Positions 1 through 4,222 of a stretch of 4,222 nucleotides of DNA are shown piece by piece. Both the position numbers and the translations under genes were made by a program. This DNA comes from Enterobacteria phage FrMerlot, in sequence record PP430144.1. One strand, given 5' to 3'. Every line of letters begins with the position of its first letter. Position 1 is the first letter of the stretch. Under the pieces are notes generated by a model that was given only the letters and a program-made list of their open reading frames with translations, had not been told where the DNA came from and ran no database searches.

Positions 1-2
1 TC

Positions 3-15
3 CCCCCTTAGGGGG
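3..15 (+). other. 5'-terminal stem-loop in the 5' UTR (CCCCC / GGGGG stem, UUA loop)
   Basis: Direct reading: c3-c7 pairs with g11-g15 around loop t8-t9-a10. A stable GC-rich terminal hairpin is characteristic of levivirus 5' ends. Confidence 0.55.
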
Positions 16-46
16 TCACCTCACACAGCAGTATTTCACTGAGTAT

Positions 47-53
47 AAGAGGA
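47..53 (+). promoter_or_regulatory. Shine-Dalgarno-like AAGAGGA upstream of the A2 start
   Basis: Purine-rich AAGAGGA ends 3 nt before the ATG at 57-59; the GAGG core lies 4-7 nt upstream. Confidence 0.5.
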
Positions 54-56
54 CAT

Positions 57-1319
57 ATGCCTAAATTACCACGTGGTCTACGTTTCGGAGCCGATAATGA
101 AATTCTTAATGACTTTCAAGAGCTCTGGTTTCCAGATCTCTTTATCGAATCTTCCGACACGCATCCGTGGTACACACTGAAAGGTCGTGTGTTGAACGCC
201 CATCTTGACGATCGCCTACCTAATGTAGGTGGCCGCCAGGTTAGACGTACTCCGCATCGTGCTACCGTTCCGATTGCCTCTACAGGCCTTCGTCCGGTAA
301 CAACCGTTCAGTATGATCCTACAGCACTATCGTTCTTGTTGAACGCTCGTGTTGATTGGGATTTCGGTAATGGCGATAGCGCGAACCTGGTCATTAATGA
401 CTTTTTGTTTCGCACTTTTGCACCTAAGGACTTCGATTTCTCGAATTCCCTAGTTCCTCGTTATAATCGGGCCTTCTCCGCTTTTAATGCCAAATATGGT
501 ACTATGATCGGCGAAGGGCTCGAGACTATAAAATATCTCGGGCTGTTACTGCGCAGACTGCGTGAGGGTTACCGCGCTGTTAAGCGTGGCGATTTACGTG
601 CTCTTCGCAGGGTTATCCAGTCTTACCATAATGGTAAATGGAAACCGGCTACTGCTGGTAATCTCTGGCTTGAATTCCGCTATGGTCTTATGCCTCTCTT
701 CTATGACATCAAAGACGTCATGTTAGATTGGCAGAAACGCCACGACAGGATTCAACGCCTCCTTCGGTTTTCAGTTGGTCACGGTGAGGACTATGTTGTC
801 GAATTTGACAACCTATATCCCGCCATCGCCTACTTTAAACTTAAAGGTGAGATTACACTCGAACGCCGTCATCGTCATGGTATAACCTACGCTAACCGCG
901 AAGGATATGCTGTTTTCGATAACGGTTCCCTTCGGCCTGTGTCCGATTGGAAGGAACTTGCCACTGCATTCATCAATCCGCATGAAGTTGCGTGGGAGTT
1001 AACTCCCTACAGCTTCGTTGTTGATTGGTTTTTGAATGTCGGTGACATACTTGCTCAGCAAGGTCAACTATATCATAATATCGATATCGTAGACGGTTTT
1101 GACAGACGTGACATTCGTCTCAAATCTTTCACCATAAGTGGTGAACGAAATGGGCGACCTGTTAACGTTTCTGCTGACCTGTCTGCTGTCGATACATTTT
1201 ATAGTCGATTACATACGAGCAAGCTTCCGTTCGCTACACTTGATCTCGATACTACCTTCAGTTCGTATAAACACGTTCTTGATAGTATCTTTCTATTAAC
1301 CCAACGCATCAAGCGTTGA
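57..1319 (+). CDS. A2: Maturation protein A2 (virion attachment protein; in Q-beta also the lysis effector that inhibits MurA)
   Basis: 420-aa ORF with ATG start and TGA stop at 1317-1319, first gene after a 56-nt leader. The translation (MPKLPRGLRFGADNEILNDFQELWFPDLF...LLTQRIKR) is recognisably the Q-beta A2 protein with scattered substitutions, judged from memory rather than by alignment. Confidence 0.95.
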   Translation: MPKLPRGLRFGADNEILNDFQELWFPDLFIESSDTHPWYTLKGRVLNAHLDDRLPNVGGRQVRRTPHRATVPIASTGLRPVTTVQYDPTALSFLLNARVDWDFGNGDSANLVINDFLFRTFAPKDFDFSNSLVPRYNRAFSAFNAKYGTMIGEGLETIKYLGLLLRRLREGYRAVKRGDLRALRRVIQSYHNGKWKPATAGNLWLEFRYGLMPLFYDIKDVMLDWQKRHDRIQRLLRFSVGHGEDYVVEFDNLYPAIAYFKLKGEITLERRHRHGITYANREGYAVFDNGSLRPVSDWKELATAFINPHEVAWELTPYSFVVDWFLNVGDILAQQGQLYHNIDIVDGFDRRDIRLKSFTISGERNGRPVNVSADLSAVDTFYSRLHTSKLPFATLDLDTTFSSYKHVLDSIFLLTQRIKR

Positions 1320-1339
1320 AACTTTGGGTCAATTTGATC

Positions 1340-1741
1340 ATGGCAAAATTAGAGACTGTTACTTTAAGTAACATCGGGAAAGATGGAAAACAAACTCTGG
1401 TCCTCAACCCGCGTGGGGTAAATCCCACTAACGGTGTTGCCGCGCTTTCACAAGCGGGTGCAGTTCCTGCGCTGGAGAAGCGTGTTACCGTTTCGGTATC
1501 TCAGCCTTCTCGTAATCGTAAGAACTACAAGGTCCAGGTTAAAATCCAGAACCCGACCGCTTGTACTGCAAACGGTTCTTGTGACCCATCCGTTACTCGC
1601 CAGGCGTATGCTGACGTGACCTTTTCGTTCACGCAGTATAGTACCGATGAGGAACGAGCTTTTGTTCGTACGGAGCTTATCGCTCTGCTCGCTAGTCCTC
1701 TGTTGATCGATGCTATCGATCAACTGAATCCAGCGTATTGA
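1340..1741 (+). CDS. cp: Major coat (capsid) protein
   Basis: ATG at 1340-1342 to TGA at 1739-1741, 133 codons. The translation MAKLETVTLSNIGKDGKQTLVLNPRGVNPTNGVA...IDAIDQLNPAY is a Q-beta-type coat protein. The ORF-track start at 1316 is a TTG that overlaps the A2 stop and is not used here. Confidence 0.95.
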   Translation: MAKLETVTLSNIGKDGKQTLVLNPRGVNPTNGVAALSQAGAVPALEKRVTVSVSQPSRNRKNYKVQVKIQNPTACTANGSCDPSVTRQAYADVTFSFTQYSTDEERAFVRTELIALLASPLLIDAIDQLNPAY

Positions 1742-2338
1742 ACACTGCTCATTGCCGGTGGTGGCTCAGGGTCTAAACCCGATGGTCCGGTTATTATTAC
1801 TCCGGATCCACCGATAGATCCGCCGCCAGGTACAGGTAAGTATGCCTGTCCCTTCGCAATTTGGTCCCTAGAGGAGGTTTACGAGTCTCCTACTAAGAAC
1901 CGACCGTGGCCTATCTATAATGCTGTTGAACTCCAGCCCCGCGAGTTTGATGTTGCCCTTAAAGATCTTTTGGGCAATACAAAATGGCGTGATTGGGATT
2001 CACGGCTTAGTTATACCACGTTCCGCGGTTGCCGTGGCAACGGTTATATTGACCTTGATGCGAGTTATCTTGCTACTGATCAGGCTATGCGTGATCAGAA
2101 GTACGACATTCGCGAAGGCAAGAAACCTGGTGCTTTCGGTAACATTGAGCGATTCATTTATCTTAAGTCGATAAATGCTTATTGCTCTCTTAGCGATATT
2201 GCGGCCTATCACGCCGATGGTGTGATAGTTGGCTTTTGGCGCGATCCATCTAGTGGTGGTGCCATACCGTTTGACTTCACTAAGTTTGATAAGACTAAAT
2301 GTCCCATTCAAGCCGTGATAGTCGTTCCTCGTGCTTAG
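1340..2338 (+). CDS. A1: A1 read-through protein (coat protein plus C-terminal extension; minor capsid protein)
   Basis: I translated 1742-1969 by hand and found no stop; the track ORF 1970-2338 is in the same frame (position mod 3 = 2). Total 332 aa if the UGA is read as a sense codon. The extension (TLLIAGGGSGSKPDGPVIITPDPPIDPPPGTGKY...PIQAVIVVPRA) matches the Q-beta read-through domain. Confidence 0.9.
1739..1741 (+). other. Leaky UGA stop codon of the coat gene (programmed read-through site)
   Basis: The frame stays open for 199 further sense codons after this UGA, ending at TAG-TAA at 2336-2341. In Q-beta this UGA is suppressed at low frequency by host tRNA-Trp to make A1. Confidence 0.85.
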
Positions 2339-2343
2339 TAACT

Positions 2344-2348
2344 AAGGA
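2344..2348 (+). promoter_or_regulatory. Shine-Dalgarno (AAGGA) for the replicase gene
   Basis: AAGGA lies 8 nt upstream of the ATG at 2357, in the 18-nt gap between the A1 stop and the replicase start. Confidence 0.55.
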
Positions 2349-2352
2349 TGAA

Positions 2353-2372
2353 ATGCATGTCTAAGACAGCAT
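2353..2372 (+). promoter_or_regulatory. Translational operator hairpin (coat-protein binding site) over the replicase initiation codon
   Basis: AUGCAUGUCUAAGACAGCAU folds as an 8-bp stem (2353-2356 and 2358-2361 paired with 2365-2372), a bulged A at 2357 and a 3-nt UAA loop at 2362-2364. The replicase AUG (2357-2359) sits inside the stem. This is the Q-beta-type operator architecture. Confidence 0.8.
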
Positions 2373-4126
2373 CTTCGCATAACTCTCTTAGCGCACAATT
2401 GCGCCGAGCCGCGAACACAAGAATTGAGGTCGAAGGTAACCTCGCACTTTCCATTGCCAACGACTTACTATTGGCTTATGGTCAATCGCCATTTAGCTCT
2501 GAGGCTGAGTGTATTTCATTCAGCCCGAGATTCGACGGGACCCCGGATGACTTTAGGATAAGTTATCTTAAAGCCGAGATCATGTCGAAGTATGACGATT
2601 TCAGCCTAGGTATTAATACCGAAGCTGCTGCCTGGGAAAAGTTCCTAGCAGCAGAGGCTGAATGTGCTTTAACGAACGCTCGTCTCTATAGGCCTGACTA
2701 CAGTGAGGATTTCAATTTCTCACTGGGCGAGTCATGTATTCACATGGCCCGCAGAAAAATAGTCAAGTTAATAGGAGACGCTCCGTCCGTTGAGGGTATG
2801 TTGCGTCACTGCCGTTTCTCTGGTGGTGCCACAACAACGAATAACCGTTCGCACGGTCATCCGTCCTTCAAGTTTGCGCTTCCACAAGCGTGTACGCCTC
2901 GGGCTTTGAAGTATGTTTTAGCTCTTAGAGCTTCTACACACTTCGATATCAGAATTTCTGATATTAGCCCTTTTAATAAAGCAGTTACTGTACCTAAGAA
3001 CAGTAAGACCGATCGCTGTATTGCTATCGAACCTGGTTGGAATATGTTTTTTCAACTAGGCATCGGTGGTATCTTACGTGATCGGTTGCGGTGCTGGGGT
3101 GTCGATCTGAATGATCAGACGATAAATCAGCGTCGCGCTCACGAAGGCTCCGTTACTAATAACTTAGCAACGGTTGATCTCTCAGCGGCAAGCGATTCTA
3201 TATCTCTTGCTCTCTGTGAGCTCTTATTGCCCCCAGGCTGGTTTGAGGTTCTTATGGATCTCAGATCACCTAAAGGGCGGTTGCCTGACGGTAGTGTTGT
3301 TACCTATGAGAAAATATCCTCTATGGGTAACGGATACACATTCGAGCTTGAGTCGCTTATCTTTGCTTCTCTTGCTCGTTCCGTTTGTGAGATACTGAAC
3401 TTAGACTCGTCTGAGGTCACTGTTTACGGAGACGATATTATTTTACCGTCCTGTGCAGTACCTGCCCTTCAGGAAGTTTTTAAGTATGTTGGTTTTACGA
3501 CCAATACTAAAAAGACTTTTTTTGAGGGGCCGTTCAGAGAGTCGTGCGGTAAGCACTACTATTCTGGCGTAGATGTTACTCCCTTTTACATACGTCACCG
3601 TATAGTGACTCCTGCCGATTTAATACTGGTTTTGAATAACCTATATCGGTGGGCCACGATTGATGGCGTATGGGATCCTAGGGCCCATTCCGTGTACCTC
3701 AAGTATCGTAAGTTGTTGCCTAAACAGCTGCAACGTAATACTATACCTGATGGTTACGGTGATGGAGCCCTCGTCGGATCGGTCCTGATCAATCCTTTCG
3801 CGAAAAACCGCGGGTGGATCCGGTACGTACCGGTGATCATAGACCATACAAGGGACCGAGAGCGTGTTGAATCGGGGTCGTATCTTTACGACCTCTTTTC
3901 GCGTTGCTTTTCGGAAAGTAACGATGGGTTGCCTCTAAGGGGTCCGTCGAGTTGCGATTCTGTAGATCTATTTGCTATCGATCAACTTATCTGCAGGAGT
4001 AATCCTACAAAGATAAGCAGATCTACTGGTAAATTCGATATACAGTATATCGCGTGCAGTAGCCGTGTTCTGGCACCCTACGGGGTCTTCCAGGGCACGA
4101 AGGTTACATCTCTACACGAGGTGTAA
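2357..4126 (+). CDS. rep: RNA-dependent RNA polymerase (replicase beta subunit)
   Basis: ATG at 2357 (MSKTASSHNSL...) to TAA at 4124-4126, 589 aa. The catalytic YGDD motif is encoded at 3425-3436 (tac gga gac gat) in frame. The translation is recognisably Q-beta replicase. An in-frame ATG three codons upstream (2348) overlaps the SD and is less likely to be the start. Confidence 0.93.
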   Translation: MSKTASSHNSLSAQLRRAANTRIEVEGNLALSIANDLLLAYGQSPFSSEAECISFSPRFDGTPDDFRISYLKAEIMSKYDDFSLGINTEAAAWEKFLAAEAECALTNARLYRPDYSEDFNFSLGESCIHMARRKIVKLIGDAPSVEGMLRHCRFSGGATTTNNRSHGHPSFKFALPQACTPRALKYVLALRASTHFDIRISDISPFNKAVTVPKNSKTDRCIAIEPGWNMFFQLGIGGILRDRLRCWGVDLNDQTINQRRAHEGSVTNNLATVDLSAASDSISLALCELLLPPGWFEVLMDLRSPKGRLPDGSVVTYEKISSMGNGYTFELESLIFASLARSVCEILNLDSSEVTVYGDDIILPSCAVPALQEVFKYVGFTTNTKKTFFEGPFRESCGKHYYSGVDVTPFYIRHRIVTPADLILVLNNLYRWATIDGVWDPRAHSVYLKYRKLLPKQLQRNTIPDGYGDGALVGSVLINPFAKNRGWIRYVPVIIDHTRDRERVESGSYLYDLFSRCFSESNDGLPLRGPSSCDSVDLFAIDQLICRSNPTKISRSTGKFDIQYIACSSRVLAPYGVFQGTKVTSLHEV

Positions 4127-4133
4127 CCTGGGA

Positions 4134-4152
4134 GGGCGCCAATATGGCGCCT
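4134..4152 (+). other. 3'-UTR hairpin 1 (GGGCGCC / GGCGCCU stem, AAUAU loop)
   Basis: Direct reading: 4134-4140 pairs with 4146-4152, six G-C pairs plus a closing G-U, around a 5-nt loop. Confidence 0.55.
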
Positions 4153-4176
4153 AATTGTGAATAAATTATCACAATT
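4153..4176 (+). other. 3'-UTR hairpin 2 (AAUUGUGA / UCACAAUU stem, 8-nt A/U loop)
   Basis: Direct reading: a perfect 8-bp stem, 4153-4160 with 4169-4176, around loop AUAAAUUA (4161-4168). Confidence 0.55.
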
Positions 4177-4188
4177 ACTCTTATGAGT

Positions 4189-4216
4189 GAGAGAGGGATC
4201 TGCTTTGCCCTCTCTC
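4189..4216 (+). other. 3'-terminal hairpin (GAGAGAGGG / CCCUCUCUC stem, 10-nt loop AUCUGCUUUG)
   Basis: Direct reading: a perfect 9-bp stem, 4189-4197 with 4208-4216, leaving the last six nt (CUCCCA) single-stranded. Confidence 0.6.
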
Positions 4217-4218
4217 CT

Positions 4219-4222
4219 CCCA
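4219..4222 (+). other. 3'-terminal CCCA, the levivirus genome terminus and replicase initiation site
   Basis: The window ends ...cctccca. Levivirus plus strands end in CCCA-OH, with the final A untemplated. Confidence 0.7.

Follow-up and report, generated by a model that had tools for sequence, protein, structure and literature searches.

The 4,222-nt sequence deposited as PP430144.1 for Enterobacteria phage FrMerlot (the whole stretch is called the window here) is written in DNA letters, and it raises the question of what it represents: the genome of a natural RNA phage, a laboratory strain or its clone, a chimera, or a DNA copy carried by a bacterium. The window is almost certainly the genomic (+) strand of FrMerlot given as DNA, FrMerlot being a naturally occurring Qβ-type phage with F-piliated E. 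coli as its host. The identification is based on four exact protein matches, A2, A1, coat, and replicase being identical to WZB35614.1 to WZB35617.1 in this order, and on the equal length of the record that carries these proteins, 4222 nt; at this level of comparison no difference from FrMerlot was detected. Judged from its sequence, FrMerlot is a member of the species Qubevirus durum in the genus Qubevirus, family Fiersviridae. Aligned end to end, eleven Qβ-type genomes are 91.5-97.0% identical to the window in nucleotides over the whole length, and each protein carries substitutions. Megablast matches were confined to records of the Qβ type and related Qubevirus (Qβ, the Qβ-like Fr isolates, M11, and MX1), with similarity over the whole length to laboratory Qβ (94.2-94.4%) and about 70-75% identity to M11 and MX1. 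In published work, FrMerlot is a plaque-purified, plaque-forming, F-pilus-dependent RNA phage, which was used in two defence-system studies. FrMerlot is thus an already known, deposited isolate, and the identification is correct but ordinary. As a discovery it has little value, being a deposited isolate of the best-studied RNA phage group with all elements as in Qβ; its use is practical, and it shows that the genome of an RNA virus can be recognised when given in DNA letters.

Four genes were recognized on the + strand within about 4.2 kb, through their open reading frames and four Pfam matches (Table 1). Their order, A2 (maturation), coat, read-through A1, and replicase, is the gene order of Qubevirus. 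The initial annotation, made from the letters alone, had proposed the same four genes in the same order with Q-beta-like translations, and each of them matches a Pfam family and solved Qβ structures. It also described the junctions as tight or overlapping. They are tight, with intergenic gaps of 20 nt between A2 and coat and 18 nt between A1 and replicase, but the only overlap between genes is the coat gene nested in A1. In Emesvirus, the MS2 type, lysis is encoded by a separate, overlapping gene, a read-through protein is lacking, and the genome has about 3.6 kb. In the window, a read-through domain is present, no overlapping open reading frame is conserved, and the length is 4.2 kb.

Table 1. 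Features of the FrMerlot window, in window coordinates.
Feature	Position	Strand	Details
5' untranslated leader	1..56	+	5' hairpin CCCCC/GGGGG, bases 2-15 (end alignment, fold)
A2 maturation/lysis protein gene	57..1319	+	420 aa, stop UGA; WZB35614.1
Coat protein gene	1340..1741	+	133 codons, predicted leaky UGA at 1739-1741; WZB35616.1
A1 read-through protein	1340..2338	+	332 aa: coat and 198-codon extension, ends UAG UAA
A1-linker indel hot spot	1783..1800	+	alignment; window 9 nt (3 aa) longer than laboratory Qβ
Coat-protein operator hairpin	2353..2372	+	fold: AUGC-A-UGUC UAA GACAGCAU
Replicase beta subunit gene	2357..4126	+	589 aa, stop UAA; WZB35617.1
Qβ M-site equivalent (S1/replicase internal binding region)	2550..2872	+	putative placement, by +5 offset
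Long-range internal partner AAAGCAG	2978..2984	+	complementary to 4200-4206
Stem-loop inside replicase gene	3586..3675	+	fold -31.2 kcal/mol, z -3.72
3' untranslated domain	4127..4222	+	four hairpins, terminal closing stem, CCCA end
Long-range 3' partner, hairpin loop CUGCUUU	4200..4206	+	complementary to 2978-2984

The A2 product matches Phage_mat-A in Pfam (E 1.5e-135) and the structure of Qβ A2 (PDB 5vlz, E 1.3e-283). By analogy with Qβ, A2 would be the single-copy protein that binds the pilus and delivers the RNA, and it would also be the lysis protein. Seven open reading frames in alternative frames were checked as candidates for extra overlapping genes, and none of at least 40 aa stays open across all 13 genomes. 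The absence of a conserved extra open reading frame would fit lysis by A2 without a separate gene.

The coat protein is assigned to Levi_coat (E 3e-61), and Cys75 and Cys81 (counting Met as 1) are present. Its UGA stop lies in the context UAU UGA ACA. Downstream, the same frame stays open for 198 codons as a read-through domain, about 195-200 codons being expected for Qubevirus; read-through at this position is predicted. The A1 frame has this one internal stop only, and the deposited protein WZB35615.1 is identical to it with Trp at the UGA. A1 matches the Pfam family Read-through (PF16814, E 6.3e-95) and the A1 structure 3rlc in PDB (E 1.1e-125). As in Qβ, a few per cent of ribosomes would decode the coat UGA as Trp, leading to A1. 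In the alignment, the 9-nt insertion in the A1 linker is common to the window, FrHibiscus, and FrBurgundy. An exact 32-nt pattern taken from this insertion gave no match in IMG/VR, JGI metagenomes, or GTDB genomes.

The replicase matches RNA_replicase_B (PF03431, E 1.7e-216) and the Qβ replicase structures 3mmp, 4q7j, and 3agp (E 0), and contains the YGDD motif at residues 357-360 (nt 3425-3436). The operator hairpin at the start of its gene has a 3-nt loop and a bulged A, the first base of the replicase AUG. Its sequence is the same as in Qβ, and the region 2345-2373 does not vary among the 11 Qβ-type genomes. Coat dimers would bind this hairpin and shut off replicase translation, as known from Qβ. 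The M-site of Qβ is located at Qβ nt 2545-2867 (PMC4176380), and its equivalent in the window was placed with the coordinate offset taken from gene starts. This is the region of the window best conserved against M11 (0.84). On the Qβ model, the replicase beta subunit would join host EF-Tu, EF-Ts, and S1 and recognise the internal M-site. A2, coat, and replicase would be translated directly from the genomic RNA, which acts as their messenger in Qβ. Further downstream in the replicase gene, none of 200 shuffled sequences folds as well as the stem-loop listed in Table 1. A preprint from 2026 proposed the FrSangria counterpart of this stem-loop as the trigger sensed by the defence protein ApeA, and the coordinates that it lists for FrMerlot, 3586-3675, fit the window.

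Both ends of the window bear on its completeness. Qubevirus genomes begin with GGGG and end with CCCA. The window ends with CCTCCCA (CCUCCCA as RNA), so that the CCCA terminus noticed in the initial annotation is confirmed, as is the description of the genome as near-complete, the 5' end being short by just 4-5 nt (GGGG or GGGGG). Base 1 is T, and it is A in every compared genome that reaches its 5' terminus. FrBurgundy opens with the same bases as the window, TCCCCCC. The missing G run and the leading T probably reflect a truncated record and not the biology of the phage; a genuine U at this position would be unexpected, as it would disrupt the A-U pair by which the 5' hairpin is extended. 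Users of the FrMerlot record should be aware that its 5' end is incomplete and opens with a doubtful T.

The consensus fold of the 3' domain from eight genomes contains 34 base pairs, and compensatory changes are seen at 10 of these. AAAGCAG and CUGCUUU occur once each in the window. The former is invariant in 13 of 13 genomes, and the latter is kept in eight of the nine genomes whose records reach the 3' loop, the exception being HL4-9 with CUGCUUA. PMC4176380, with reference to Klovins and van Duin, describes a long-range interaction between the internal region and the 3'-terminal hairpin loop. By analogy with Qβ, this pairing would help the replicase to initiate the minus strand at the CCCA end. 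The Rfam scan of both strands returned a single chance match below threshold (P24, 18.9 bits, where the gathering score is 100); the Qβ elements are not covered by any curated Rfam family. With its complete 3' end, FrMerlot is a further natural Qβ-type genome useful for comparative RNA structure work.

FrHibiscus (PP430143) and FrBurgundy (PP430142) show 97.0% nucleotide identity to the window, and they have the same gene layout and a 332-aa A1 with the linker longer by 3 aa. They differ from the window by 10-11 aa in each of A2, the A1 extension, and the replicase, and their records stop 20-25 nt short of the 3' end. They also have a private patch of substitutions in A1, corresponding to window positions 1925-1960. 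HL4-9 and GIII_C show 95.5-95.9% identity end to end. In the neighbour-joining tree, the window falls into a clade with GIII_C, FrHibiscus, and FrBurgundy. Laboratory Qβ (for example AB971354, Qubevirus durum) has diverged from the window by 5.6%, mostly at synonymous sites, with protein identities of 96-98.5%. It shares the genes, the regulatory hairpin, the read-through context, the 3' domain, and the long-range partners; the differences are the A1 linker, longer by 3 aa in the window, and the 5' GGGG, absent from the window. M11 and MX1 make up the other lineage in the genus that is related to Qβ. Their nucleotide identity to the window is about 70% when the full alignment is counted and 74.5-75.3% in the part aligned by BLAST (82% of the window), and their proteins are 64-86% identical. 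Their architecture is as in the window, CUGCUUU and AAAGCAG are conserved, and the pairing of the 3' hairpins is kept through compensatory changes. Purifying selection is seen in all genes, with dN/dS of about 0.06-0.09 in A2 and replicase. The protein-guided scan of IMG/VR found a single close relative, the partial sequence L014 (2890 nt, 91.4% nucleotide identity), and otherwise many distant leviviruses at about 40%.

Many records in the phage collection searched are laboratory-evolved lines of Qβ that match the window at about 94%, and one reading would make the window laboratory Qβ itself, a cDNA clone of this strain, or a line evolved from it. Such an origin is extremely improbable. An identity of only 94.2-94.4% comes with dS of 0.13-0.34 per gene and dN/dS of about 0.05-0.10 against the laboratory strain, the 9-nt insertion in A1 is common with environmental isolates, no plasmid match and no vector flank were found, and the window proteins are exactly those of the isolate FrMerlot. 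The 97.0% identity to environmental isolates, against about 94% to laboratory strains, and the mostly synonymous changes bear out the earlier suggestion of a natural variant. It is very unlikely that two Qβ-type strains are joined in the window, be it by chimeric assembly or by natural recombination. At about 1650-2100, laboratory Qβ is about as close to the window as FrHibiscus is, but this dip is due to the dense substitutions private to FrHibiscus and FrBurgundy described above. Elsewhere, these two are the nearest relatives in 300-nt windows or trail the nearest by no more than about 1%, and the ranking of the relatives is broadly stable across sliding windows, on which ground a mosaic was rejected. 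In addition, an independent, stand-alone Logan contig of 4163 nt (run SRR24145724) is 99.95% identical to the window, with 2 mismatches; no publication on this run was found in the literature.

The probability that the window is a DNA copy carried by a bacterium, in its genome or on a plasmid, is negligible. No copy of the window was found in 72,556 plasmids, in 5,426 complete E. coli genomes, or in 185,579 representative bacterial and archaeal genomes (GTDB, one per species), and the protein-guided scan of the GTDB genomes gave no match either. The phage genome occupies the whole of the window, with the 5' hairpin at one end and CCCA at the other, and neither host nor vector flanks are present. 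These results agree with the initial annotation, which had read the window as an RNA genome in DNA form and not as a prophage. The similarity to Qβ, the divergence, the lack of flanks and of any DNA copy, and the published treatment of FrMerlot as an RNA phage together identify the window as the DNA-letter rendering of an RNA genome. Its life cycle, like that of Qβ, would have no DNA stage.

Klebsiella phage Cute (OP321095), of the Qβ type, is reported to be non-plaque-forming, to grow on Klebsiella pneumoniae, and to belong to the same clade as FrHibiscus (PMC12724129). Its genes have the same lengths as those of the window at a constant offset of +11, its identities to GIII_C and MX1 are similar, and the window contains an exact match to one of its qPCR primers. 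That primer also fits 8 of 12 other compared genomes, the other primer has one mismatch to the window, the Cute genome is reported as 4,387 nt, and the four proteins of the window agree exactly with those on the 4222-nt FrMerlot record. The identity with Cute was rejected on the primer mismatch, the genome length, and the protein matches, and there is very little chance that the window is Cute or a Qβ-like phage of another host instead of FrMerlot.

FrMerlot, or the small clade to which it belongs, has several private features: the A1 linker longer by 3 aa than in Qβ, the form of the stem-loop at 3586-3675, and the A2 residues N137, R138, I257, T277, and S361. These features might alter the phenotype, either in pilus or host range or in sensitivity to ApeA, although this is rather unlikely. 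The authors of the Cute study speculated on phenotypic effects of A2 residues of Cute (PMC12724129), and the ApeA preprint (2026) likewise speculated on a phenotypic effect of the stem-loop.

The window is a Qβ-type phage already deposited and in experimental use. By exact-sequence look-up, its A2, coat and replicase are identical to WZB35614.1, WZB35616.1 and WZB35617.1 of FrMerlot, and the FrMerlot A1 protein WZB35615.1 (332 aa) is the window translation with Trp at the UGA. The first three of these proteins are encoded on a 4222-nt contig, which is as long as the window, and the assignment to FrMerlot is based on the four exact protein matches together with this length. The FrMerlot accession is PP430144.1 according to Table S2 (PMC12724129). 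The Fr set includes four Qβ-like phages, FrMerlot among them, which were provided by M. Baym and S. Owen and plaque-purified and propagated on an F-plasmid-bearing E. coli MG1655 host; bNACHT proteins do not restrict these four phages (PMC12169576). The defence protein ApeA makes FrMerlot plaques smaller (2026 preprint). Klebsiella phage Cute was considered as another source; it is a close relative with identical gene lengths, yet it does not have the window sequence. A stand-alone Logan contig of 4163 nt, SRR24145724_252 from the run SRR24145724, matches window 19-4181 with two mismatches (window 469 and 1943). Both are non-synonymous (A2 R138Q and A1 E202K), and the contig residues at both positions are each found in several other strains. 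These differences probably represent stock heterogeneity.

An ORF scan revealed three long ORFs and one in-frame extension on the + strand, while only short ORFs were found on the minus strand and in the remaining + frames. The proteins were assigned with Pfam as Phage_mat-A (A2, E 1.5e-135), Levi_coat (coat, E 3e-61), Read-through (A1 extension, E 6.3e-95) and RNA_replicase_B (replicase, E 1.7e-216). The order of maturation, coat, read-through A1 and replicase genes proposed in the initial annotation is thus borne out by the ORFs and the Pfam matches for all four. Its description of the junctions as tight or overlapping holds for the tightness, with intergenic gaps of 20 and 18 nt, and not for the overlap, as the coat gene nested in A1 is the only one.

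Coordinates of genes and RNA elements in the window
Feature	Position	Strand	Details
A2	57-1319	+	ORF, 420 aa
Coat	1340-1741	+	ORF, stop UGA
A1 read-through	1340-2338	+	coat frame open for 198 further codons, up to UAG UAA at 2336-2341
Operator-type hairpin	2353-2372	+	AUGC-A-UGUC/UAA/GACAGCAU; folds as expected; bulged A opens the replicase AUG
Replicase	2357-4126	+	ORF, 589 aa
M-site equivalent	2550-2872	+	placed by offset
AAAGCAG	2978-2984		single in the window
Stem-loop inside the replicase gene	3586-3675		-31.2 kcal/mol, z -3.72
3'-terminal hairpin loop CUGCUUU	4200-4206		single in the window

The Q-beta-like character of the proteins also agrees with solved Qβ structures: the beta subunit for the replicase (3mmp, 4q7j and 3agp, E 0), A2 for the maturation protein (5vlz and 5mnt, E about 1e-283), and the A1 read-through domain for the extension (3rlc, E 1.1e-125). 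YGDD is found at replicase residues 357-360, and the UAU UGA ACA read-through context is conserved. Residues 75 and 81 of the coat (Met = 1) are cysteines and match the disulfide-forming pair of the Qβ coat. Seven alternative-frame ORFs were checked among the compared genomes, and no extra overlapping gene was supported. The longest, at 1920-2174, encodes a hydrophobic 84-aa product within A1 in another frame and is open in 9 of the 11 Qβ-type genomes; the frame is broken in TW18, M11 and MX1, and HL4-9 has lost its start, so it has no support as a gene.

In a megablast search against 50,697 phage records, 81 matched the window, every one of them Qβ-type or a related Qubevirus (Qβ, Fr Qβ-like isolates, M11 and MX1). 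The nucleotide identity was 97.0% for FrHibiscus and FrBurgundy, 95.8% for GIII_C, 95.5% for HL4-9, 95.1% for TW18, 94.9% for FrSangria, 94.2% for laboratory Qβ, 91.5-91.7% for BZ1, VK and BR12, and 74.5-75.3% over 82% of the length for M11 and MX1. This ranking was unchanged in a global alignment of 13 genomes, and the window clustered with GIII_C, FrHibiscus and FrBurgundy in a neighbour-joining tree. The sole close relative in IMG/VR is a partial contig of 2890 nt (IMGVR_UViG_3300019216_000421), 91.4% identical to window 5-2903. Synonymous changes predominate among the differences from relatives, and dN/dS against five relatives is 0.06-0.09 in A2 and the replicase, and higher in the A1 extension (0.05-0.36). 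Judged from these substitutions, the divergence pattern is that of a functional natural variant, as had been proposed, and not of a damaged copy. The A1 extension ranges from 195 to 198 residues among Qβ-type genomes, being longest in the window, FrHibiscus and FrBurgundy, and the linker between the coat and the read-through domain (window 1783-1800) is an indel hot spot.

There is no sign that the window is a chimera or recombinant. In most 300-nt sliding windows, FrHibiscus and FrBurgundy either rank first among the relatives or trail the first by at most about 1%. The most evident exception, around 1650-2100, is due to an A1 patch that is dense in point substitutions and private to these two phages; it aligns to window 1925-1960 and changes AVELQPRE to AARLPLRQ. 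The patch contains no indel and is therefore not a compensated frameshift. The absence of a DNA stage, claimed in the initial annotation, is also upheld: no match to the window turned up among 72,556 plasmids and 5,426 complete E. coli genomes, and neither an exact pattern match nor a replicase relative was found in the genomes of 185,579 species (one genome each). The window itself leaves no room for host or vector flanks.

The genome had been called near-complete with a CCCA end, and at the 5' end it is short by only 4-5 G residues. Nothing is missing at the 3' end, which has the canonical sequence (…CCCUCUCUCCUCCCA); the last 20-30 nt are missing from the FrHibiscus, FrBurgundy, FrSangria and GIII_C records. 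The window starts with TCCCCCCTTAGGGGG, while complete genomes start with GGGG(G)ACCCCCC…, and its base 1 is T, where every compared genome reaching its 5' terminus has A. FrBurgundy likewise begins with TCCCCCC, and the T and the missing GGGG(G) are probably artefacts introduced at this end of both records by library preparation or assembly. The length is accounted for by laboratory Qβ (4217 nt) minus 4 nt plus a 9-nt insertion in the A1 linker, giving 4222 nt.

The operator-type hairpin, which is the Qβ coat-protein operator, lies in a segment (2345-2373) invariant in all 11 Qβ-type genomes. The M-site equivalent is the best-conserved region against M11. A consensus fold of eight genomes gave 34 pairs in the 3' untranslated domain, 10 of them with compensatory changes. 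The 3'-terminal loop CUGCUUU is complementary to the internal AAAGCAG. The latter is invariant in 13 of 13 genomes; of the 9 genomes with records extending to the loop, 8 carry CUGCUUU and HL4-9 has CUGCUUA. Minus-strand initiation depends on this long-range interaction between the 3' loop and the internal site (PMC4176380, citing Klovins and van Duin). The coordinates of the stem-loop inside the replicase gene are those given for FrMerlot in the 2026 ApeA preprint, in which the FrSangria counterpart is the proposed trigger of the ApeA defence nuclease; FrSangria differs from the window at 6 bases across it. Rfam contains no family for the RNA elements of the window.

Two database entries related to Qβ proteins were also recognized. 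One, annotated in Lactococcus cremoris as a "hypothetical protein" of 137 aa (TNU90119.1, contig of 428 nt), is in fact the C-terminal portion of a Qβ A1 protein, most likely through contamination of a bacterial DNA assembly. A 90% protein cluster with Qβ replicases also includes many bacterial EF-Ts proteins. The engineered EF-Ts-EF-Tu-replicase fusion chain of PDB 3agp presumably links the two, and the grouping would then be a clustering artefact.
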